This document shows, piece after piece, positions 2,390 to 12,943 of a stretch of DNA of 40,000 bases. This stretch comes from Spirirestis rafaelensis WJT71-NPBG6 (GTDB taxonomy: Bacteria; Cyanobacteriota; Cyanobacteriia; Cyanobacteriales; Nostocaceae), in assembly GCA_019359015.1 (NCBI GenBank), contig JAHHID010000001.1:3274-43273 (forward strand). The letters run 5' to 3'. The position numbers and the translations under genes are program-made. The notes beneath the pieces were generated by a model. It worked only from the letters and a program-made list of their open reading frames with translations. It made no database searches and had not been told where the DNA came from. The first letter of the stretch is position 1, and every line of letters starts with the position of its first letter.

Positions 2390-3763
2390 TTGTCTGATGT
2401 AATTTATCAAGCACAACCACCCTTAGAATTTATTCCGCCGGCGCTGAACCCTTTGTTTTTGAGATTTGTCCATCTGTTTTTACCCAGTTGGATGCGTTGG
2501 AAAACTGCGATCGCTGATGTTGAAGCAGACAAAGTAGAGATTTTGGTGGATCTCTATCGCCAATTTCAAGATGGTAAGATCCGCTTTATGTTGGCGTTTC
2601 GTCATCCGAAAACAGACGATCCATTTTGTTTAGCTTACTTGATGAAGCAACTCGTGCCAAAGGTAGCACGAGATAAGGGTACAACGCTACAGTTGCCGAT
2701 TCATGCTCATTTTATCTACGATCGCGGTATTCCTCTGTGGGCTGGTTCCTACGTCGGTTGGATCGCTTCTAATTTGGCTGCTACACCGATTCAGCGGGGT
2801 AAAGCTGATTGGACGGGTTTGCGATCGGCACGGGAATTGTTTGTGAATGGTAAATTCCCGATGGCGGCGGCGCCAGAAGGTGGTACTAATGGTTTGAGTG
2901 AGTTGATCAGTCCATTGGAACCGGGAATCGCGCAATTAAGCTTTTGGTGCGCGGAAGATTTGCACAAAGCACAACGCTCTGAGCAGGTTTTAATTGTACC
3001 AGTTGGAATTAAATATAATTATGTCGAAGAGCCTTGGGAAGCGATCGCTCATCTTTTAAGTGAATTAGAAGCAGCTAGCGGTTTACCAGTAGGACAAAGT
3101 AATGCTACCTTCGAGTCGCTTTATCCCAGGCTGTTAAATGTGGCTGAACATTTAATGTCCTTGATGGAAAAGTTTTACACGCGGTTTTATCATCAAAAGC
3201 TGCCAGAAATCAAGATTGCAGAAGGACAGGATAGAAATGAAGCGTTAGCATCTCGACTTCAAGCGATGTTAAATATAATTCTACAAGTACCAGAGCAATA
3301 TTTTGACTTGCAGCCAAAAGGAAATTTAATCGATCGCTGTCGTCGAGTAGAGCAAGCGGGGTGGAATTATATATTTAGAGAAGAATTTAAAGATGCCAAA
3401 ACGCTGTCTGCTGTAGAAAAAGGTTTAGGCGATCGCATTGCAGAAGAAGCAAATTTGCGAATGTGGCACATGCGACTAGTAGAAAGCTTCGTTGCAGTTA
3501 CAGTTAAATACATTCAAGAAAAACCTACAGCAGAAAGGTTTGCGGAAACAACCTTACTTTTATCGGATATGGTAACACGAATTAAAGGCAGCAATCCCTT
3601 TAAGCGTCCGCAATTAGGTAAGCAACAAGCAAGAATTACCATAGGTGAACCCATATCCGTTTCCGATCGCTATCCGGTCTATAAAGCAACTCGTCAAGGT
3701 GCGAGACAATCAGTTGCTGACTTAACCAAAGATTTGCAGCAAGCGATGGAAAAATTGATTTGA
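2390..3763 (+). CDS. Glycerolipid acyltransferase-family protein (PlsC-like, HX4D motif)
   Basis: The 457-aa ORF has a TTG start. The motif AFRHPKTDDPF fits the HX4D acyltransferase catalytic motif, and EGGTNG fits the downstream block. Confidence 0.7.
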   Translation: MSDVIYQAQPPLEFIPPALNPLFLRFVHLFLPSWMRWKTAIADVEADKVEILVDLYRQFQDGKIRFMLAFRHPKTDDPFCLAYLMKQLVPKVARDKGTTLQLPIHAHFIYDRGIPLWAGSYVGWIASNLAATPIQRGKADWTGLRSARELFVNGKFPMAAAPEGGTNGLSELISPLEPGIAQLSFWCAEDLHKAQRSEQVLIVPVGIKYNYVEEPWEAIAHLLSELEAASGLPVGQSNATFESLYPRLLNVAEHLMSLMEKFYTRFYHQKLPEIKIAEGQDRNEALASRLQAMLNIILQVPEQYFDLQPKGNLIDRCRRVEQAGWNYIFREEFKDAKTLSAVEKGLGDRIAEEANLRMWHMRLVESFVAVTVKYIQEKPTAERFAETTLLLSDMVTRIKGSNPFKRPQLGKQQARITIGEPISVSDRYPVYKATRQGARQSVADLTKDLQQAMEKLI

Positions 3764-3847: not shown

Positions 3848-4075
3848 TTTTGTACAGACGTTCTAGTAGTCTGCCAAGGCAACGCGTGCGGGGTTTATGG
3901 TAAGAAAATCAAGTTCTTTCCCCCCCTGCTTCCGCTGCTTCCCCTGCCTCCCCTGCCTGCCTTCACCCGTCAAAATTGGGTTGGTCGAGTACTAGTGGAA
4001 CGTCTCTACCTAACAACGCTCCAACGAACAACAACCTAAAAAAGTTAATTCAGAGCGCATAAAGTGAAATTGGAA

Positions 4076-4654
4076 TTAACCCCATATTATCTGTAAGTCC
4101 AAAACAAACCCTGGTAATATATCTTCTCCAGATAAGCTTGTGGGAGACTCTAATAGTTCTTTTGGTTGCCCTTGTCTATAAATTTCAACGCGACGTGTTT
4201 TTCTATCAATTAGCCAACCCAATTTTACCCCTGCATTCACATATTCAAGCATTTTCGCCTGCGTTTCGCTCAAACTGTCGGATGGGGACATTAACTCCAA
4301 GACAAAATCTGGAGCAATGGGAGGAAACTTTTCGCGTTGTTCTGGTTTAAGCGCGTTCCACCGCTCTAATTGTATCCAGGATACATCGGGGGAGCGGTCA
4401 GGACCATTGGGGAGTTTAAAGCAGGTGGAGGAGTCGAATACCTCTCCGAGTTTTGTTTGACGGTTCCAAATTACAAAATCCGCAATAATCGATGCATTAC
4501 GTTTCCCAGTTTCTCCTCCCGTTGGTGGCATTACTATCAATTCTCCATTGGCATTGCGCTCAAATTTGACATCGGGATTATCCCGACACAGTTGGTAAAA
4601 TTGGTCGTCGTTAAGTTTGACAACATTATTAAAGTTGATGGTAATTGCGGTCAT
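4076..4654 (-). CDS. Uma2-family (DUF820) putative endonuclease
   Basis: 192 aa. Has the typical Uma2 layout: ...FERNANGELIVMPPTGGETGKRNASIIADFVIWN...PDVSWI...PDFVLELMSPSD.... Confidence 0.85.
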   Translation of the reverse strand: MTAITINFNNVVKLNDDQFYQLCRDNPDVKFERNANGELIVMPPTGGETGKRNASIIADFVIWNRQTKLGEVFDSSTCFKLPNGPDRSPDVSWIQLERWNALKPEQREKFPPIAPDFVLELMSPSDSLSETQAKMLEYVNAGVKLGWLIDRKTRRVEIYRQGQPKELLESPTSLSGEDILPGFVLDLQIIWG

Positions 4655-4910
4655 GGCAATAATATGACATTTTGGGAATTAGGTTTTATTATTCATTATC
4701 CACAGGGGTATCGTCCGAGCAAGTTAACTCTTCTGAAAAGGGTAAATACTCATACTCAGGCGTATTGTATAGCATGACGACTCATTTATTTTAGATTGAT
4801 TATATTGCTATCGAAATCATTTTTTTAACGCAGAGGAACGCAAAGGTTTCGCTAAGGTTCGCAGAGTTCTTTATAAATGTATGATAAGGCTGCGAGTGAA
4901 GATAAACACA

Positions 4911-5483
4911 TCATCCAGGAAAAACCTTAGATAAATTAAGAGTTAAATCAGGAAAAGATGGCAAATTAACTGATTCGTTCGGCAAAGAAATAACTTTGCG
5001 TCGATAGCCAAATTTACCTGGCAAATTTTGATAAGGTTCGCTGTAAGATTCCAAGTAATTATCTACTAAATTGAATATCCAATAATCATAAATCCCCGCT
5101 TCAGCATAAAGTGGTAGTTTAACCTCTTGGTCATATTTTAAAGAAGAATCCGCAATTTCAATTAAAAGTAATATATCAGCCGGACTGGGATGAGCATTTA
5201 GATAATCATCAGCGCGATTGCGGACAATTACCCGATCTGGTTCAGGTTCGCTGTAATCTAGTATGATAATCGGTTGTTGCCCTCGCAGCGTTGCACGCTC
5301 TCCTACCAGCTTGTATAATTCTCGCTCTAAGCGTGTCTCACAAACTGCGTGCGGTTTGCCTTTAGCTACCATTGGGATTATTTCTCCTCTAATTAGCTCA
5401 AATCGGTCGTCCTCTTTGAAAAATCCGAGTTCTGCCAAACGTTCATATTCATTTATCGTAAAGCGTTTAGCGGTAATAGTCAT
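4911..5483 (-). CDS. Uma2-family (DUF820) putative endonuclease, second paralog
   Basis: 190 aa: FTINEYERLAELGFF..DDRFELIRGEII.M...H......EPDRVIV...LLLIEIADSSLKYD...K..LYAEAGIYDYWIFN. Confidence 0.85.
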   Translation of the reverse strand: MTITAKRFTINEYERLAELGFFKEDDRFELIRGEIIPMVAKGKPHAVCETRLERELYKLVGERATLRGQQPIIILDYSEPEPDRVIVRNRADDYLNAHPSPADILLLIEIADSSLKYDQEVKLPLYAEAGIYDYWIFNLVDNYLESYSEPYQNLPGKFGYRRKVISLPNESVNLPSFPDLTLNLSKVFPG

Positions 5484-5510: not shown

Positions 5511-6374
5511 TTATTTTAGTGCTTGGAAGTTGATAGGAATGCGTTCTAAAATGCTAGAACCAAATACTTTTTCTAGTTCTAAATACTCAAGATGAACGTA
5601 ACCTATGTGACAGTGACAAGTTTGGTTAGTGCAAGAGCGATCGCCTAAATTATCTTCCCAATTAAAATCATATATATTACCAATTGGTTCTTTAATAAAG
5701 TGGCAACGTCGCATCGTCCCATCACCATCAACTGAAATCGCTGATTTACCAGCGCGGCAACTATGACCTAAGCTCGTATAATGCTGAGTATTTAGATGAA
5801 ACAGCGGATCAATCGACTCAAAAAAATTCCGGTCTTCATCAGACAAATTCCGTAGTTCTCGCTTAACTGCATTAATCCACAGATAAATGTGTTTTGGTAA
5901 CTCGCGACGTAAGGCAGCAATTTCATCTTTGAATTGAGGGAAACCGACAACACCCGCACTAAAACGGACATTTCGTTTGTCGAGTTCTAAACATCTATTT
6001 AGAAAGCTTTCGCGTGATACCCATTCCGGATGAAATGTTGCCCAAAGTGCCAATGTTTCTTTATTACACTCTTCCACCCAATCTAAATTACAAGAAAGAT
6101 TAGTTTGAATTGCCGCCTTATTAACGTGAGTCATTTGAGTTAATTTTACCAATGCTTGCTGATAAAATCGATGAATAAGTGCTTCACCCCAAGGTGTGAA
6201 TAAAATTGAGAATTGGTGTTGTGAATTTTCGGCAATCCAATTTACAAAACGTTCTAATGATTGTTGATCAATAGCTAATTCGGCGGCTGTTTGTTGGCGT
6301 TTAGCAAAAGGGCAATATTCGCAGCCGTAGTTGCAACTTATCAAAGAACCGCGATAGAGAATCGTGAGATGCAT
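5511..6374 (-). CDS. Small radical SAM protein (STM4011-family-like), last gene of the five-gene cassette
   Basis: A CX3CX2C motif (CNYGCEYC) lies 15 aa from the ATG at 6374 (MHLTILYRG...). A C-terminal Cys cluster (CRAG..x20..CHF..x27..CTNQTCHC) suggests an auxiliary Fe-S site. The track start at 6404 is a GTG inside a dispersed repeat, so I prefer the ATG at 6374. Confidence 0.8.
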   Translation of the reverse strand: MHLTILYRGSLISCNYGCEYCPFAKRQQTAAELAIDQQSLERFVNWIAENSQHQFSILFTPWGEALIHRFYQQALVKLTQMTHVNKAAIQTNLSCNLDWVEECNKETLALWATFHPEWVSRESFLNRCLELDKRNVRFSAGVVGFPQFKDEIAALRRELPKHIYLWINAVKRELRNLSDEDRNFFESIDPLFHLNTQHYTSLGHSCRAGKSAISVDGDGTMRRCHFIKEPIGNIYDFNWEDNLGDRSCTNQTCHCHIGYVHLEYLELEKVFGSSILERIPINFQALK

Positions 6375-6396
6375 AGGTGAATTGGTAATTAGAAAA

Positions 6397-6490
6397 GCCG
6401 ACACCCTAGAAGGGTGCAGTTACACGAACAAAGCCTGCGGAGGCAGGCTTCGTTTGTACAGCCCCAGGCTTCTAGCCTGAGGGCGATTTG
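6397..6490. repeat. Dispersed nested-hairpin (MITE-like) repeat, compact copy
   Basis: gccgacaccctagaagggtgcagttacacgaacaaagcctgcggaggcaggcttcgtttgtacagccccaggcttctagcctgaggg. It has three internal palindromes plus a long-range stem, and lies between the two radical SAM genes. Confidence 0.65.
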
Positions 6491-6563
6491 CCAAACCGGG
6501 ATTTTCTTTAAAAATAGATGATGATTAGGTCTTATAATTGCGTCTGCAAAAGTCTAATTTTGC

Positions 6564-7934
6564 TCATTTCAAATCATAAGTTTGCATTAATTGGTTCACT
6601 TTCTCGGAAAATAACCAAGCGCCAATTACATCAGATTTCTCAATACCAACTTCAGTCAAACGCAATATTTGCTTTTCTTGTGTCGCCAAATTCAAAGATA
6701 ACAATTGCGAAAGTTCTGGAAATGCAATTTCATCTGCCCCAAACTGATTTTGATAGTCGGTGAGATTCAAACCTTCATCGGAAAACAAAGATAATAAAAT
6801 ATAGCGACGACGACGTTCTTCAGCATCAAGTTGAAAGCCATAACTAGCATAGTCGAAGGCTTCATCTGGTGTTTGAATATAAGCTTGCAAAATATCGCGA
6901 ATTTCCCTAGACCCTACAGCGTAGTCGTTAGAGTAGTGTAAAGTATCGGTGTAAGAACGTGCCCCACAACCCAAGCCGACCATTCCATCTGCTTGACAGA
7001 AGTAGACGGGAGTGGGGGGTTCGGAGGGAGAAATTCCCCCTTGTCCCAAACGTTGGAACATTCGCATGGAAACTTGAGTATATCCGGAAGAGAGTAAGAG
7101 CGATCGCCCTTCGCGATAACATGCTAAACGTATATCATGCCATTCTTTATCCGAGCGTCCCAAACCTGTCAACGGTCGCACGTACAAGGGATACAAATAA
7201 ATTTCCTTCGGTTGAAAGCGCAGCGCAGCACGTATCGAATACAACCAGCTATCTACAGTTTGTCCGGGAAGTCCGTAAATTAGATCAATATTTATTGTGG
7301 GAAAATTAGCCTCGCGCATCCGATTCAGTGCGGCTTCTACTTGCGCGGTGGTTTGACGGCGACCGGTTGCAAGAACTTCTGACTCGATGAAACTTTGAAC
7401 ACCAATACTTGCTCTATCTACGCCACGCGATCGCAACAATTGTAGTTTATCTTTGTCTGCCGTCTCTGGCGACATCTCTACAGAAACAGGAATATTCTGC
7501 AAACTCGCACCCATCGTTTTTTCTGCAACATTAAGAATTGCTTCTAATTTGTCGATAGGTAACTGAGTTGGTGTACCGCCACCAAGAGCAAATCTGGCAA
7601 AAGACACTTCACCCAGCAATGATTTCACTTGTCGCGCTTGTCGTTCAACGGTGCGAACATATTGACTAACAAAATCCTCATTGTGGGTGACGGTGGTAAA
7701 CAAATTGCAAAATCCGCAACGCATTTCGCAGAAAGGGATGTGGATATAGAGAAAAAGCGCTTGTCTATCTTGCTTTGACCATAAATCTGCGAGTTTGACA
7801 GGCGGAGTGAGGGGACGATAAGCTGTCTTATGCGGGTATGAGTAAACGTAAGCTTGATAAGGCGATCGCTCAAGAAAAGATTTGAGATTTTGCTGTTTTG
7901 CTGTAATCATCTTATGTAAATGGGTTTTGGACAT
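6564..7934 (-). CDS. HemN-like (oxygen-independent coproporphyrinogen-oxidase family) radical SAM protein, STM4012-family-like
   Basis: YVYSYPHKTAYRPL...LYIHIPFCEMRCGFCNLF (CX3CX2C) and a HemN-type core. The first 20 codons of the track ORF (to 7994) overlap hairpin repeats, so the ATG at 7934 (MSKTHL) or 7910 (MITAKQQ) is more plausible. Confidence 0.8.
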   Translation of the reverse strand: MSKTHLHKMITAKQQNLKSFLERSPYQAYVYSYPHKTAYRPLTPPVKLADLWSKQDRQALFLYIHIPFCEMRCGFCNLFTTVTHNEDFVSQYVRTVERQARQVKSLLGEVSFARFALGGGTPTQLPIDKLEAILNVAEKTMGASLQNIPVSVEMSPETADKDKLQLLRSRGVDRASIGVQSFIESEVLATGRRQTTAQVEAALNRMREANFPTINIDLIYGLPGQTVDSWLYSIRAALRFQPKEIYLYPLYVRPLTGLGRSDKEWHDIRLACYREGRSLLLSSGYTQVSMRMFQRLGQGGISPSEPPTPVYFCQADGMVGLGCGARSYTDTLHYSNDYAVGSREIRDILQAYIQTPDEAFDYASYGFQLDAEERRRRYILLSLFSDEGLNLTDYQNQFGADEIAFPELSQLLSLNLATQEKQILRLTEVGIEKSDVIGAWLFSEKVNQLMQTYDLK

Positions 7935-8075
7935 CTTACATTTGAACCCTCCCCCGCCATAGGTTATAAACCTATGGCTAATAGCTAAAGTCATCTAAAG
8001 ATGACTAGAAGAAAGACTAGGCAATGAATTCAGTCCATTAAAATGGACTTGAGCTATTAGCCTGAGATTTCAATC

Positions 8076-8936
8076 TCAGGTGGGTGTGGATGCTAATTGA
8101 GAAGATAGCAAGGTATCATCCGCCGAAGAATCAACCGGCAAAATAAACTCCGCATAGGGAACCGTCCACACTGCCGGATGGCTAAGACGATGACCAGTGT
8201 ATCCATCATCACCATAAGTTGTGCCGTGGTCAGAGCAGAGAATACAAAACGTAGAACCGCGTTTTCGTAAAGCATCCCAGAGTTTTACTAACTGAATATC
8301 GATATATTCCAAGGCAGCGGCGTGAGATTCAATAGTATCTTTTTTAGCACCAGGTAGATAGAAATAATTCGGTTGATGCAAAGCTGAGATATTGATGAAT
8401 AAGAAAAGGCGTTGATTTTTGGGAGTTTGGGCGAGGATTTTTTGGGCGATCGCTACCTGATTTTCTGTAGAGTTAAAATTGGTAACACCTAATTCTGGAC
8501 TCCAGTAACTCTCAGCAAACATTGAGGGAAGCACATTACCCAAAGGATTCCGTTTATTAAAAAAGCCGACACCGCCAATACAAACAGTATGATAGCCTTT
8601 AGCCGCAAATCCACTGATAATATTAGCGCCATCCAACACACAAGTACTTTCCGTGGTGGTACTACTACCCTCAAAACCCAAAGCAAATAGTCTTGGGTGT
8701 ACTCCAGGTTTTACAGGAGTCGGTAGAAAGCCGGCAAAAAAAGCATGATGAGCAGCGTAAGTGAAGTTTCCCGGAGAATGGCGTTCTTCCCAGCCACTTT
8801 CTGGCAAAACTGCTTCTAAATTGGGAGTGCGTCCTTGTGCTAATAAATCTTTCGCAACGTCATAACGCAAAGTGTCTAGAGTAATAAAAAGAATATCGTG
8901 CGTACCAACAACTTGATTCATGTTCAGCATAAGCAT
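8076..8936 (-). CDS. Alkaline-phosphatase/sulfatase-superfamily hydrolase (STM4013-family-like)
   Basis: The N-terminal ILFITLDTLRYD is metal-ligand-Asp-type, and the C-terminal ILCSDHGTTYGDDGYTGH carries a DHG motif. Three candidate ATGs lie at 8936, 8930 and 8921. Confidence 0.72.
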   Translation of the reverse strand: MLMLNMNQVVGTHDILFITLDTLRYDVAKDLLAQGRTPNLEAVLPESGWEERHSPGNFTYAAHHAFFAGFLPTPVKPGVHPRLFALGFEGSSTTTESTCVLDGANIISGFAAKGYHTVCIGGVGFFNKRNPLGNVLPSMFAESYWSPELGVTNFNSTENQVAIAQKILAQTPKNQRLFLFINISALHQPNYFYLPGAKKDTIESHAAALEYIDIQLVKLWDALRKRGSTFCILCSDHGTTYGDDGYTGHRLSHPAVWTVPYAEFILPVDSSADDTLLSSQLASTPT

Positions 8937-8970
8937 TAAAAATTAAAAATAAGTGAAATAGAGTTCATTT

Positions 8971-9114
8971 TCTCGTTCCCAGGTTCAACCTGGGAATGCA
9001 TTCTTTGGAGGCTCTGCCTCCCTTATTCAACAGAAAAATTTAATAATTACACTGATGAGGTACATGAGGCAGAGCCTCATTAATAGCATTCCCAGGTTGA
9101 ACCTGGGAACGAGA
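8971..9114. mobile_element. MITE-like element with 50-bp terminal inverted repeats overlapping the 3' end of the ATP-grasp gene
   Basis: The left arm at 8971-9020 (tctcgttcccaggttcaacctgggaatgcattctttggaggctctgcctc) is nearly the reverse complement of the right arm at 9066-9114. A sibling copy lies at 12836-12943. Confidence 0.6.
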
Positions 9115-10230
9115 TAAACGAGAACAAATCGCTTTTATTTCACTAGTATAAGTATCTAACCCATTCCAAGTAATTCCAGGTAGCAAATCGCCAAAAGCAT
9201 TAATTTCTAAAATGGCGTGATTTCGGAAATCAGGCAAAATCAGCAAATCAACACCGCAATATAAACTATTAGGAAATAAACCCGTAGCAGCTTCACAACT
9301 TTGCTTCATCACCTGCCAATTTTGCGTCCCAACTTTCGCCAAAAATTCCTCAGTATCTCCTCTTTCATTACCAAGATGTAAATTCGTCATCGGACTTTTT
9401 CCCAACCTGACAACGATATGTTGTGCTTCACCGTTGATAACCACCACACGCAAATCAAAACCGCATCCTTGTAAGCGTGCTTTGGGTAGCCATTCTTCTA
9501 CTTGAACACCTTCAGATGTTAAAATGTTAATAATATCGGCAATCTCTTCTGTTTTGGTATAGTTACGAATTTTACGCGAATTGTAAAGCAGTGTTTGCCC
9601 GTTTCTCTGCACTCTTTCCACAGTAGTGATAGCAGACTCAAAGCGCAAATTTGCTTGATAGGCAACGACTCCAGACGCAGCAGAACCGTGAGAAAGTTTG
9701 ATAAATACTCGCTCTAACTTTTCCTGCTGCATTTTTTGGCGTAAATGTTCGTAGTTGTGAATTGCACCCAACGAACGCGGAACCGGGATATTGTGACGAC
9801 TGAATATTTCATGACACAACGGTTTATCAAACATCGTAACGATGTCTTGCGGATGATTCATAATTGAGCATTTGAGTTGCTTTTCCCATTGCTGAAGTAA
9901 ATATCGCCAGCCTAAATACCATTGTCGAGGGTAGAAAATGCGTCCTTTATCAAAGACTAATTTTGCAGCTTCGGCAGAATTAATTTGTTGATGTTTACCT
10001 CTTGCAATTTCAGCACCAACAGCAATGATGGCTTTCTCAACTTCAAAGTTTTTTTCAGGAGAATCAAAACGGATGATAGTATCAGGTGTATTGAAATGTT
10101 CCAGAGTTTTGCCGGCAATTAAATCTGCGTAAGCTACGACAATTGCAGGTGGAAAATTGAGATTTTTAAGCGCTTGTTGAAAAAAATTAACCCGTCTATT
10201 TTCCCGGTTAGCGATGATAACATTGAGCAT
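9040..10230 (-). CDS. ATP-grasp family protein (STM4014-family-like)
   Basis: Shows FIKLSHGSAASGVVAY, DLRVVVINGE and ILEINAFGD, which are ATP-grasp-type blocks. The ATG at 10230 lies 5 nt after the stop of the upstream LRR gene; the track start at 10254 is a TTG. The last 24 codons are encoded by the MITE-like element. Confidence 0.75.
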   Translation of the reverse strand: MLNVIIANRENRRVNFFQQALKNLNFPPAIVVAYADLIAGKTLEHFNTPDTIIRFDSPEKNFEVEKAIIAVGAEIARGKHQQINSAEAAKLVFDKGRIFYPRQWYLGWRYLLQQWEKQLKCSIMNHPQDIVTMFDKPLCHEIFSRHNIPVPRSLGAIHNYEHLRQKMQQEKLERVFIKLSHGSAASGVVAYQANLRFESAITTVERVQRNGQTLLYNSRKIRNYTKTEEIADIINILTSEGVQVEEWLPKARLQGCGFDLRVVVINGEAQHIVVRLGKSPMTNLHLGNERGDTEEFLAKVGTQNWQVMKQSCEAATGLFPNSLYCGVDLLILPDFRNHAILEINAFGDLLPGITWNGLDTYTSEIKAICSRLSRSQVQPGNAINEALPHVPHQCNY

Positions 10231-10235
10231 TAATC

Positions 10236-11246
10236 TTACTCGGAAACAGAGCAATAACGATAAACTTCATTTTCATCGTCACAATCTTCTTCTGCTTTTT
10301 TTTGCCCATCAGTGATGATGCGAAACTGCATATTATCCTGTTTTTTTGGTATTGCTTTGATTAGTTCTTCTGATAAGAAGTTTTCTGAAAGATTGAGAAT
10401 ATTAAGTTGATGAACGGCGAAACAATTAAGCAATACTTCAGCACCGGCATCAGTCAGCGTTCCTAATGATAAATCGAGAATTTTAATTGAGTTAATCAAA
10501 GGTGAGTTTATAAAAGCTTTGGCAATATCATCAGAGTATTGGCTATTTCGCAATCCTAAATAAATCAAGTTTGGAAATACTGTATTAACTAGGATGGGAT
10601 CTAAGTTCTCAATGGTAGAATCTCCACCGTAAGTATCTAAACCTAGCCATAGTTCCAAATGCTCTAATTTGGGCAAATCGAGAGCGCAAATTTGAGCAAT
10701 GGTTGCACTATTCAAGCCACCAGTTTCAATAATGAGTGCTTTTAAATTGTCATGTCTCACAAACGGACTAAATGCTAAACTATCACCACCGCGAATTTGC
10801 AATATTTCCAGCTTGGGATATGCTTCTAAAACAGGGCTGATGTCGCTCTGTATTATCCAAGAAATTTCACTTTCATTGTAAGAAACATCGCCAATAAATA
10901 GACCTTTAAAATTAGTTAGTTTATCTTTGGCAGCAATTAGCGCATCAACTACAAGCTTAGAACTGTGAGCATACATTTCTCCATGCCACATTCCAAAAAT
11001 TAAAGGTTCTAATTTACTCGCTTCAGAATCTTGAAGAAGTTTTGCCAGTTTCTGTGCAGCATCTTCTTGCTCATCATATTCGCATCGAATGGCGTATGCG
11101 GTGTTAACAAAATCGCTGATGCCAATTTTTGGATTATATTCGACAACCTGCCGATTCGCAAATGTGGAGACGTGCATACCTCTGTATCCTGGATACTTCT
11201 CCAATCGCTCGTGAAGATTCCAAGGTTGATTTTGATTGTCTGTCAT
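10236..11246 (-). CDS. Leucine-rich-repeat (RNI-like) protein (STM4015-family-like), first gene of the cassette
   Basis: 336 aa. Has repeated L..L.L motifs (LKALIIETGGLN, LPKLEHLELWLG, FPNLIYLGLRNS, IKILDLSLGTLTDAGAEVLL, LNILNLSENFLSEE). A long AT-rich region lies upstream. Confidence 0.75.
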   Translation of the reverse strand: MTDNQNQPWNLHERLEKYPGYRGMHVSTFANRQVVEYNPKIGISDFVNTAYAIRCEYDEQEDAAQKLAKLLQDSEASKLEPLIFGMWHGEMYAHSSKLVVDALIAAKDKLTNFKGLFIGDVSYNESEISWIIQSDISPVLEAYPKLEILQIRGGDSLAFSPFVRHDNLKALIIETGGLNSATIAQICALDLPKLEHLELWLGLDTYGGDSTIENLDPILVNTVFPNLIYLGLRNSQYSDDIAKAFINSPLINSIKILDLSLGTLTDAGAEVLLNCFAVHQLNILNLSENFLSEELIKAIPKKQDNMQFRIITDGQKKAEEDCDDENEVYRYCSVSE

Positions 11247-11629
11247 AAAGCTCTAACCTCTACTCTGATAATAGGATTCCCATAAATGTACGCGAATATG
11301 CAATTTCATTCAAATCCACATTTTGTACTAGTTCCAACAACTGCCATAAGTTAGAGCTTATAACTGATAGCAAAAGTATTTTTTTTAAGATTGATAAAAG
11401 TTTTATTAAATTTCAATAGAATGCATATTAATAGCGTGCTATTAATCATGGTGCAAGTTATCACTTCAATTTATAATGAGCGATCGCTCTTTTTAGCAAG
11501 TATTTTATATTTTAGGACTTTTGTTCTTATTTGTACATAATTGCCAATACAACTGAGAAATTCGGCACTTTTTTGTTTATCAATTCGTCTTCAGCCAAAA
11601 ATCTACCAAAATATAATATTTATTGGCTC

Positions 11630-11880
11630 GTGATAGTCTACGAAATCCAAAATTTATGCAAAACTTATCAAGGACAAACCCTACCCGCTAAAAAACATCT
11701 TGCTACAAATTTACCAAGGTGAAATCTTTGGCATTTTGGGTGACAACGGTGCAGGTAAAAGTACTCTTGTGCGCCAAATGGCAAACTTGCTGAGAAGTTA
11801 TTTTGGTAGCATCACTTTTTTTCAAAAAAATATCACTGAAGCGCGTGATTTAGTACAAATGAATGTGGGCTATATGCCCT
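11630..11880 (+). pseudogene. ABC transporter ATP-binding protein, frameshifted N-terminal remnant
   Basis: (V)IVYEIQNLCKTYQGQTLPAKK is followed by a frame change near 11695 into LQIYQGEIFGILGDNGAGKSTLVRQMANLLRS...VGYMP (Walker A). Homology stops abruptly near 11880, before the Q-loop, signature and Walker B motifs. Confidence 0.7.
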
Positions 11881-12002
11881 ATTATCATTTTTATCGTAAA
11901 AGAAAGGGTTTAAGACCCCTATGTATACACGTAGCATCAGTTTCAGTCGGGGTTTAAATCCCCTACTGAAAATGTCTTTAATTTTGAATTGTTAACGGTC
12001 GT

Positions 12003-12206
12003 GTGATTATACCAGGCGATCGCTTGCCGGAGTTTTTGTTAATTTTAGGATATTTAAGTCCTGCTACTTATGCAGCGTCAGCGTTGCGACAAACTTTGCT
12101 CGCAGCGATAACGGGAAAATTAATGGTAGATATTATGGCTTTGCTAATTTTTGCGTTGCTTACTTTCTGGTTGGTGGGACGTAAGCTAGATTGGCGATTG
12201 CGGTAG
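12003..12206 (+). pseudogene. ABC-2-type permease, C-terminal remnant only
   Basis: The 67-aa ORF LPEFLLILGYLSPATYAASALRQTLL...LLIFALLTFWLVGRKLDWRLR looks like the last TM helices of an ABC-2 permease. No upstream body is present. Confidence 0.55.
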
Positions 12207-12835: not shown

Positions 12836-12943
12836 TCTCGTTCCTAGCACCACTGCTAGGAATGCAATTATTCGAGGCTCTGCCTCGTCTGGAGGAGGCA
12901 GAGCCTCCAGATAAGCATTACCACGCTCTGCGTGGTAACGAGA
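12836..12943. mobile_element. MITE-like element, compact sibling of 8971-9114
   Basis: tctcgttcctagcaccactgctaggaatgcaattattcgaggctctgcctc (12836-12886) faces gaggcagagcctccagataagcattaccacgctctgcgtggtaacgaga (12895-12943). It has the same termini (TCTCGTT...GAGGCTCTGCCTC) as the copy at 8971-9114. Confidence 0.55.

Follow-up and report, generated by a model that had tools for sequence, protein, structure and literature searches.

Introduction

LysX and ArgX act on LysW, and TTL acts on tubulin, in the fashion of the ATP-grasp ligase RimK. LysW is an acidic protein with the tail ...EDWGE; an ATP-grasp enzyme of the RimK family loads a substrate onto its terminal Glu, and downstream enzymes then act on the tethered group. 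RimK itself can attach as many as fifteen glutamate residues to S6, a reaction that has been compared with that of TTL (PMC4431377). Here we describe a five-gene cassette in a 40,000-nucleotide stretch of DNA from the cyanobacterium Spirirestis rafaelensis WJT71-NPBG6 (contig JAHHID010000001.1, positions 3,274 to 43,273; called the window in what follows). The cassette encodes a leucine-rich repeat (LRR) protein, an ATP-grasp enzyme, a hydrolase and two radical S-adenosylmethionine (SAM) proteins. It looks like a system that modifies a protein C-terminus by ATP-grasp chemistry and that is equipped with an unprecedented tailoring set of radical SAM proteins and an enzyme resembling nucleotide pyrophosphatase/phosphodiesterase (NPP).

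An earlier reading of this DNA made without database searches, hereafter the original prediction, had matched the five genes to the families STM4011 to STM4015 and had named no biochemistry for them. Our search of the literature, which did not cover the 2009 amidoligase survey, likewise found no function for any of the five families and no account of the protein tail described below, only entries in omics tables.

Results and discussion

Five genes of catalogued families form the cassette

The ORF list contains five open reading frames (ORFs) between window positions 5511 and 11246, all co-directional on the minus strand and arranged in the order 4015-4014-4013-4012-4011, in agreement with the original prediction. 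In an NCBIfam hmmscan, all five encoded proteins exceed the curated whole-protein cut-off of their own STM401x model, which bears out the family assignment for every gene, and the window locus is a bona fide member of the catalogued, uncharacterised STM4011-4015 families. The LRR protein STM4015 (10236-11246; 336 aa, pI 4.65) scores 305 bits against NF038076 (cut-off 275), and the ATP-grasp protein STM4014 scores 428 bits against NF038074 (cut-off 175). The longest ORF of STM4014 spans 9040-10254; from the ATG at 10230 it covers 9040-10230 and encodes 396 aa. The junction with the LRR gene reads ...RYCSVSE-TAA-gatta-ATG, so that the STM4015 stop codon and this ATG are separated by 5 nt, as had been noted. 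These two genes are followed by the STM4013/SEN3800 hydrolase (8076-8936; NF038075, 437 bits versus 250), the HemN-like radical SAM protein STM4012 (6564-7994; NF006067, 619 bits versus 380), which carries CEMRCGFC, GGGTP and HemN_C, and the radical SAM protein STM4011 (longest ORF 5511-6404; NF038073, 418 bits versus 200), which from Met11, the start used in homologues, covers 5511-6374 and has 287 aa. In the longest ORF of STM4012 the family match begins only at residue 45, so translation is likely to start at Met21 (window 7934) or at Met29 (7910). The motifs quoted earlier, TLDTLRYD, CSDHG, CEMRCGFC and CNYGCEYC, are all found in the window proteins.

Pfam recognizes Radical_SAM, HemN_C, Sulfatase/Metalloenzyme/Phosphodiest and RimK/YheCD ATP-grasp domains in these proteins. 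For the LRR protein there is no Pfam match at E<=0.01, but its earlier description as an LRR protein is upheld by Protein Data Bank (PDB) entry 2RA8, which matches the window protein with E=9e-46, and by LRR_6/LRR_4 Pfam matches in its relatives. Entry 2RA8, an uncharacterised protein of B. fragilis (Q64V53), is the only solved structure of the family.

STM4015 proteins end in a conserved tail

For comparison, one genome per GTDB species was scanned, which gave at least 583 confirmed loci. We kept 80 of these, together with flanks of up to 10 kb, and compared them with the five window proteins by tblastn. Clustering of the ORFs of the 80 loci yielded 149 LRR family members in 67 loci. Nearly all of these proteins share a C-terminal feature that the original prediction had overlooked and that is newly described here. 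Specifically, an acidic stretch is followed immediately by a tail of the form R-Y-x-[A/S]-[V/L/I]-[S/G/A]-Glu-COOH. We defined the strict tail as R[YF]xxxxE-stop, which fixes Arg at -7, Tyr/Phe at -6 and Glu at -1; in the resulting consensus position -5 is variable, -4 is Ala/Ser, -3 is Val/Leu/Ile and -2 is Ser/Gly/Ala, with the stop codon directly after the Glu.

The strict tail is present in 119 of the 149 family ORFs and in only 2 of 4,495 background ORFs from the 80 loci. A phmmer search of 1.84 billion representatives recovered 2,492 members of the STM4015 family, and when the best 150 of these were taken as representatives of 50%-identity clusters, 122 carried the strict tail; the remainder are mostly near-variants such as RTVLVSE, RHIAVSE and YYVSVSE. 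An example tail peptide is DENEVYRYCSVSE. In the window, STM4015 ends in ...EEDCDDENEVYRYCSVSE, that is RYCSVSE, which is the sole strict match in all six frames. The codons for R-Y-C-S-V-S-E occupy 10239-10259, after the acidic stretch EEDCDDENE, and the stop codon occupies 10236-10238. A homologue that is 87% identical (P0121) aligns with the window protein over its full length.

Tails from other lineages include ...DDWRYPSLTE in Paenibacillus, ...WRYVALGE and ...WRFVALGE in Deinococcus and ...IYRSIAVSE in Methylobacterium. Enterobacteria have a variant class, represented by ...IYMNAMYTE in Salmonella and ...VYMNPMFTE in E. coli. Because the variant tails all keep the same ending, the universal core is an acidic stretch followed by hydrophobic-small-Glu-COOH. 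The native tail of 2RA8, ...DDDYSYPMITE, ends at residue 354 of the 362-residue chain, and the residues after it are presumably an expression tag.

The family as a whole is acidic (median pI 4.7); the isoelectric points of the enzymes give no clear signal of electrostatic complementarity beyond this acidity of the LRR proteins. Almost all tail matches (104 of 114) belong to open frames that are 250 aa or longer. We found no free-standing short precursor ORF carrying the tail, since the frames of 12-39 aa that end in it are decayed paralogues. The statement of the original prediction that the cassette has no precursor gene consequently holds for a separate small gene, but not for the LRR protein, which itself bears the conserved tail. 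Given this conservation, one of several options listed earlier for the chemistry, modification with the LRR protein as substrate or partner adaptor, now becomes, in its substrate form, the leading hypothesis.

Tail-bearing genes are linked to a single ATP-grasp gene

An STM4014 gene and a tail-bearing ORF occur together in 62 of the 80 loci and are both missing from 13, and only five loci are discordant, mostly owing to contig ends or a variant tail. Tail-bearing genes lie directly upstream of the ATP-grasp gene, and the distance from the tail stop codon to the STM4014 start is -60 to +21 nt in most loci. Furthermore, STM4014 is single-copy in all but one of the loci that have it, whereas the tail-bearing genes number from one to six per locus. 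In the Nostocales, extra paralogues occupy two places, the STM4015-STM4014 interval and the STM4012-STM4011 interval. These proteins of about 410-430 aa score 141-199 bits against the STM4015 cut-off of 275 and match no other family, yet they have kept the tail. One ligase facing many divergent tail-bearing paralogues is the pattern expected of an enzyme and its substrates.

The N-terminal modules of the LRR proteins vary, with HEAT in the Nostocales and WGR in Myxococcota and Planctomycetota, and WD40 proteins are interleaved. In the Nostocales loci L003-L016 (e.g. L003:1190-8643), arrays contain as many as six or seven LRR paralogues that begin with HEAT modules and stand among WD40 proteins, accompanied by decayed remnants of 12-39 aa that still end in RYxxxxE-stop; the window has a single copy. 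Such arrays suggest birth-and-death turnover of the tail-bearing family.

The ATP-grasp enzyme resembles ligases of peptide and protein carboxylates

Apart from its own family, the NCBIfam models that score best for STM4014 are RimK, MptN and CofF, all of which are alpha-L-glutamate ligases. An AlphaFold2 (AF2) model of the window protein (predicted local distance difference test, pLDDT, 86) was compared with known structures using Foldseek. The top matches are PsnB, ArgX/LysX (including the complex with LysW), RimK (including the complex with S6) and MdnC, and D-Ala-D-Ala ligases rank lower. Judged from this model, the structures nearest to STM4014 are those of ligases whose substrates are carboxylates of peptides or proteins.

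The pairing of an ATP-grasp ligase with an acidic-tailed protein ending in Glu recalls RimK with S6 and TTL with tubulin, and the RimK family is the best non-self NCBIfam match of STM4014. However, STM4014 reaches only 33.4 bits against the RimK family cut-off of 143.4 (TIGR00768) and is about 100 aa longer, its acceptor would be an LRR protein instead of S6, and the cassette adds two radical SAM proteins and a phosphodiesterase that RimK systems lack. The likeness to LysW and LysX (ArgX) extends to the acidity of the partner protein and to its hydrophobic-small-Glu-COOH ending. Here too there are differences. STM4015 LRR proteins have 280-450 aa (336 in the window), compared with the zinc-ribbon LysW of about 54 aa, and the tail sequence is not the same. 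The likeness of the ligases is at the level of fold, homologues of LysZ, LysY, LysJ and LysK and a release amidase are absent from the cassette, and tailoring would instead fall to radical SAM proteins and an NPP-like enzyme. The graspetide (microviridin) ligases PsnB and MdnC, the remaining top structural neighbours, use Asp/Glu carboxylates of a ribosomal peptide. Unlike graspetide precursors, the STM4015 tail has no conserved Thr/Ser/Lys nucleophile (-4 is A/S and -2 is S/G/A) and its bearer is a folded protein.

The remaining three enzymes

The profile of the STM4013 family finds its best PDB match, a weak one (E=1.5e-4), in the Xanthomonas NPP 2GSN. In this alignment, Asp21 falls on the metal-binding Asp of NPP, SDHG on the second metal site, and Thr59 (FTYAAHH..G) on the Thr of TFPNHY..G. 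The latter Thr is the catalytic nucleophile of NPP. In 12 diverse STM4013 sequences, D21, T59 and D236-H237-G238 are invariant, as expected of NPP-type enzymes, in which the metal-binding Asp comes after strand 1 and the Thr nucleophile about 38 residues further on. By this alignment STM4013 is a phosphodiesterase or pyrophosphatase core of the NPP type with a Thr nucleophile, and is not a formylglycine (FGly) sulfatase. The earlier placement in the alkaline-phosphatase/sulfatase superfamily stands, with its motifs. What aligns is the metal-binding Asp, DHG, and the T-[FY]-x-x-H...G surroundings of the Thr; STM4013 differs from the Xanthomonas enzyme in its much smaller core (about 265 aa) and in family-specific invariant motifs such as CIGGVGFFNK.

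STM4012 shares its HemN-like core, GGGTP motif and HemN_C domain with HemN and with class C radical SAM methyltransferases (NocN, ChuW), and matches PDB 1OLT and NocN equally well (both E~1e-28). It differs from the named enzymes in falling far below every curated cut-off, namely those of HemN (144.8 versus 324.95 bits), HemW (144 versus 205.4), ChuW (129.9 versus 400) and HemZ (120.7 versus 321.4), and in having an equivalog of its own, NF006067. This agrees with its earlier description as HemN-like, and a check that the original prediction had named as able to refute it, placement as a bona fide HemN, did not do so.

STM4011 begins directly at its radical SAM motif, a CxxxCxxC site (CNYGCEYC), and ends with five Cys in the arrangement C-x17-C-x23-C-x4-C-x-C, which corrects the x20 and x27 spacings given originally. 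All five are conserved in 65 sequences, and they may form an auxiliary Fe-S site. Maturase hidden Markov models (HMMs) match the protein with 15-21 bits against cut-offs of at least 340 bits. Its AF2 model (pLDDT 84) gives Foldseek matches to SkfB, viperins, anSME, TigE, EpeE, MoaA, BtrN and PqqE.

Distribution, synteny and accessory genes

The 80 loci come from Cyanobacteriota, Myxococcota, Planctomycetota, Acidobacteriota, Chloroflexota, Streptomyces and a metagenome-assembled genome (MAG) of Clostridia, and also from Rhodocyclaceae, Rhodoferax, Thiomargarita, Abditibacteriaceae, KSB3 and Obscuribacterales. Cassette loci span at least 10 phyla. All five genes are found in 55 of the 80 loci, and in 38 they stand in canonical order on one strand, in answer to the original prediction, which had named synteny elsewhere as a check. 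In a further arrangement (10 loci, mostly Myxococcota), 4013-4012-4011 are accompanied by 4014-4015 on the opposite strand. Seven loci have only the triad 4013-4012-4011 and six have only the hydrolase STM4013; many of the remaining loci lie on truncated contigs. No recurring alternative partner gene was seen in the triad-only and hydrolase-only loci. Median identity to the window proteins is 66% for STM4013, 54% for STM4012 and 57% for STM4011, compared with 48% for STM4014 and 40% for STM4015. This difference indicates that the cassette consists of two modules, a conserved enzymatic triad and a faster-evolving STM4014/STM4015 pair.

A search with the hydrolase at E<=1e-10 recovers 6,307 homologues, one per 90%-identity cluster, and its cyanobacterial and myxobacterial members are about 70% identical. 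The nearest locus, L001 from Tolypothrix sp. VBCCA 56010, encodes five proteins that are 83-95% identical to those of the window. Annotated records show the same gene order in Salmonella, E. coli, Paenibacillus, Deinococcus and Methylobacterium. In Salmonella the cassette sits between ompL and typA, and next in line is a Cof-type HAD-IIB gene, the start of which overlaps STM4011 at its 3' end; the STM4013 hydrolase is widely present in Salmonella enterica. Of 5,426 complete E. coli genomes, 158 (3%) carry the genes in this arrangement and at this site of the chromosome. In E. coli MCJCHV-1 (L086, chromosome 4733717-4739253) it forms a six-gene island between ompL and typA with about 70% DNA identity to Salmonella, in the position that yihLMN has in K-12; the listed carriers are human isolates, one cerebrospinal fluid strain among them.

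The original prediction had also inferred a horizontally mobile module. Mobility is plausible given the patchy distribution, which includes the 3% of E. coli genomes and plasmid or chromid records from Paenibacillus, Deinococcus, Methylobacterium, Streptomyces and Embleya, but the composition of the window is not anomalous. A search of 2.9 million viral contigs found no relatives, and a plasmid megablast with the window DNA gave no match. In a Blastocatellia MAG, a tRNA gene (L033:7737-7826) lies directly upstream of STM4015 and could mark a site of cassette integration.

Beyond the five families, no universally conserved gene was found among the 80 loci, only lineage-specific accessory sets. 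In both Salmonella (L081:9913-10647) and E. coli (L086:9900-10598), the Cof-type HAD-IIB gene has its start at the 3' end of STM4011 or within it, and nine Myxococcaceae loci (e.g. L022:2627-3334) have a HAD gene immediately before STM4013. On a plasmid of Streptomyces albidoflavus, a NUDIX hydrolase gene (L083:7812-8330) stands beside a solitary STM4013. These HAD and NUDIX neighbours hint at phosphorylated or nucleotide substrates.

Two other accessory sets are absent from the window. A pair of genes for proteins of about 98 and 340 aa occurs in Chloroflexota, Streptomyces, Planctomycetota, Chamaesiphon, Deinococcus and Methylobacterium (loci L034, L035, L040, L046, L050, L054, L059, L063, L074 and L069-L079; L084:10043-11352; L085:3504-4829). 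The smaller protein (MWRHGDVLI...GHSHR...YRVWQQREY) matches no family, and the larger, a DUF6745 protein, resembles type III effector LRRs in its N-terminal half. The second set is specific to cyanobacteria and is found in varied orientation at L004:1721-4271 and in 10-12 other loci (L019, L027, L064, L020 and others). It encodes a 70-aa protein (MAEYQKIEYRIGKDGK...), a protein of about 215 aa whose N-terminal segment is hydrophobic, and an Hsp70/DnaK-like ATPase of 519 aa.

A proposed C-terminal modification pathway

We propose that STM4014 activates the terminal Glu of the LRR protein, with the conserved triad responsible for building or tailoring the group attached to it, a scheme whose chances we put at about even. 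The substrates would be the STM4015 LRR proteins, which present an acidic, flexible tail ending in Glu-COOH. STM4014 would phosphorylate a carboxylate of the terminal Glu to an acyl phosphate and couple an amine to it, the simplest candidate being an amino acid such as Glu. STM4013, STM4012 and the twitch/SPASM-like STM4011 would either supply the group that is attached or work on it after attachment, and the precursor of this group is probably phosphorylated or nucleotide-derived. The order of these steps, like the parts assigned to both radical SAM proteins and any biological purpose, belongs to the proposal. We rate a broader outcome, in which the four enzymes together place a complex and possibly nucleotide- or glutamyl-derived group on the terminal Glu of this dedicated LRR family, as possible but tentative. 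It is chemically attractive, if speculative, that the HemN-like STM4012 performs a HemN-type propionate-to-vinyl decarboxylation on a glutamyl side chain.

Two described systems unite a radical SAM enzyme with a ligase in a comparable manner. In EF-P beta-lysylation (EpmA/EpmB) and in pyrrolysine formation (PylB/PylC), a radical SAM enzyme makes an unusual amino compound that a ligase attaches, and PylC is an ATP-grasp enzyme. The cassette would be like them only if the triad makes the donor, and the sequence relation does not go beyond the superfamily level.

Several observations weigh against the proposed pathway. The triad-only loci, which have no STM4014 or STM4015 in their flanks (7 of 80), suggest that the triad may work without LRR proteins, though the missing genes could lie elsewhere in the genome, and STM4013 stands alone in another 6 of 80. 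Enterobacterial tails have other residues in place of Tyr(-6) and Arg(-7). There is no amidase or peptidase in the cassette, which leaves a pure carrier-protein cycle of the LysW type incomplete. The fold of STM4011 does not decide its substrate class, because its neighbours include peptide and protein maturases as well as nucleotide enzymes (viperin, MoaA). The link proposed between the tail and the ligase is drawn from genomic linkage and from similarity of fold. Finally, the tail could owe its conservation to a role in docking and not to one as a substrate.

Alternative explanations

A docking role for the tail is central to the alternative that survives best. According to this explanation the triad, joined in some lineages by HAD or NUDIX enzymes, makes a modified nucleotide or sugar-phosphate as a free metabolite, the ATP-grasp enzyme ligates nothing but small molecules, and the LRR protein is a regulator or adaptor that docks through its tail. 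The EEVD tail of Hsp70 and Hsp90, which binds TPR domains, offers a comparison. The greater conservation of the triad and its occurrence without the pair in seven loci are consistent with such a role, as are the NPP-type site of STM4013, the HAD and NUDIX neighbours, and the presence of viperin and MoaA among the structural neighbours of STM4011. However, the constant Glu-COOH ending and the one-to-many linkage between ATP-grasp and tail genes would be left unexplained, and the nearest relatives of STM4014 use terminal glutamyl carboxylates or peptide and protein substrates. We consider this explanation unlikely.

A second alternative treats the tail as the source of a small product. PQQ derives from Glu and Tyr of PqqA, and mycofactocin from the C-terminal Val-Tyr of MftA. 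By analogy with these and with ribosomally synthesized and post-translationally modified peptides (RiPPs), the radical SAM proteins could cross-link or rearrange Tyr and Glu of the tail, after which a small product would be excised, and the LRR protein would be an oversized leader or scaffold. In PQQ (PqqA/PqqE) and mycofactocin (MftA/MftC) formation, radical SAM enzymes with auxiliary clusters do act on Tyr/Glu or C-terminal residues of a precursor, and PqqE is among the matches of STM4011, together with SkfB, anSME, TigE and EpeE; weak HMM matches of STM4011 to HxsB, anSME, PapB and nif11-rSAM and its five conserved auxiliary Cys point the same way. The near-invariance of Arg, Tyr and terminal Glu, with variable positions between them, and the several paralogous 'precursors' per locus also fit this picture. 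In contrast, the cassette has no protease, and scans against NCBIfam and Pfam found no RiPP recognition element (RRE) or PqqD-like domain. A short precursor, the PqqD/MftB RRE, PqqB/C and MftD/E/F are likewise absent, the order and spacing of Tyr and Glu differ, and the cassette has an ATP-grasp enzyme and an NPP-like enzyme instead. The bearers of the tail are folded proteins, 300-450 aa long and variable at the N-terminus (HEAT or WGR), and none is a short peptide; furthermore, enterobacterial tails have lost Tyr(-6), and triad-only loci occur. Taken with these observations, excision of a product from the tail seems to us improbable.

The LRR arrays bring to mind a third alternative, in which diversifying LRR proteins serve as sensors in conflict, defence or self/non-self recognition and the enzymes make an effector or signal, a function that would be compatible with modification of the tail. 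The birth-and-death remnants in the Nostocales arrays and the variable N-terminal domains are consistent with this idea, as are the enrichment in large-genome bacteria of multicellular type, the patchy distribution, the accessory status in E. coli, and the insertion sequence (IS) elements, toxin-antitoxin genes, Cas3 and Uma2 near some loci. But a search of PADLOC-DB v2 matched no system. Its hits were pVip (1e-3) and a partial, generic radical SAM likeness to PDC-M51A (6.6e-11), and STM4013, 4014 and 4015 were unmatched. No defence neighbours recur across the 80 loci, and the viral contigs contain no relatives. Also, the very high cross-phylum conservation of the enzymes and the wide presence of the hydrolase in Salmonella are unlike fast-turnover defence genes. 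We give a defence function little credence.

The remaining explanation, ordinary housekeeping by a HemN of heme synthesis and a sulfatase with its radical SAM maturase, has in its favour the older annotations ('coproporphyrinogen III oxidase', 'sulfatase', 'sulfatase maturation enzyme AslB') and a Pfam Sulfatase match of 2.8e-8, but it is effectively refuted and scarcely conceivable given the scores of STM4012 far under the HemN, HemW, HemZ and ChuW cut-offs, the 21 bits of STM4011 against the 349-bit anSME cut-off (TIGR03942), and the Thr59 nucleophile of STM4013 (FTYAAH), which replaces the Cys/Ser of C/S-x-P-x-R in a protein best aligned to NPP.

Membership of the cassette in the RimK, LysW/LysX, HemN, anSME/sulfatase, PQQ, mycofactocin, graspetide and PADLOC systems was considered and rejected, a defining feature of each being absent.

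Surroundings of the cassette in the window

The cassette is flanked by two Uma2 genes, ABC-transporter fragments, and genes for a thioredoxin-like ferredoxin, NifT, NifZ and NifV. The nif adjacency is incidental, because it is common only to the closest relative, L001, and we rejected a linkage of the cassette to nif. As originally described, the Uma2 genes are on one side (4076-5483), and they are absent from L001. Beyond them, a 457-aa ORF at 2390-3763 (plus strand) has no Pfam match, and a 92% identical ORF stands beside the cassette in L001. On the other side, also as described, are the remnants of a decayed transporter, namely fragments of an ABC-transporter ATPase (85 aa) and of an ABC-2 permease (67 aa) at 11700-12206 (plus strand). 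L001 has the ATPase fragment too, which places the decay of the transporter before the split of the two strains.

The region upstream of STM4015 (11247-11630) is presumed to hold the operon promoter. Its earlier description as AT-rich is confirmed by a GC content of 0.35 over 11001-12000, and its sigma-70 promoter matches are at consensus level, not above those of shuffled sequence. Rfam searches of the window region and of eight compact loci found no riboswitch, and the matches to miRNA families were below the gathering score and reflect long hairpins only.

Hairpins had been predicted in the internal spacers, and these spacers do fold into strong hairpins (z = -4.2, -2.5 and -6.0). Two families of small palindromic hairpin repeats are dispersed in the window. 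The spacer between STM4012 and STM4011 (6405-6550, minus strand) holds two GC-rich hairpins of these dispersed repeats, with a minimum free energy (MFE) of -47.9 kcal/mol and z = -4.2; a 21-mer from the hairpin at 6431-6451 (GAAGCCTGCCTCCGCAGGCTT) is found again at 2287-2307. A second element (8937-9125, minus strand; MFE -50.4 kcal/mol, z = -6.05) extends across the 3' end of the ATP-grasp gene and the adjoining spacer. It includes an inverted repeat at 9008-9078, whose inverted pair GAGGCAGAGCCTC is found again at 12874-12907. The STM4014 family match stops at residue 376 of 404, and insertion of the hairpin repeat (9008-9078) appears to have added the last ~25 aa of the ORF.

Implications

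The number of homologues, the breadth of phyla and the presence in Salmonella and E. coli, with no functional paper found, are reasons why the STM4011-4015 cassette matters. The tail and the RimK/LysX-like ligase turn an open-ended operon into a specific hypothesis that can be tested cheaply. If the proposal is correct, it would explain why the structure 2RA8 has remained uninformative, because extra residues follow its native end. Furthermore, the cassette would represent a new post-translational chemistry in which ATP-grasp and radical SAM enzymes act together on a folded protein, and it would provide new reactions for an orphan HemN-like clade and for an orphan clade of minimal NPP-like enzymes. 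It would also give a functional handle on bacterial LRR protein arrays, which in filamentous cyanobacteria and myxobacteria have expanded together with HEAT, WGR and WD40 modules.

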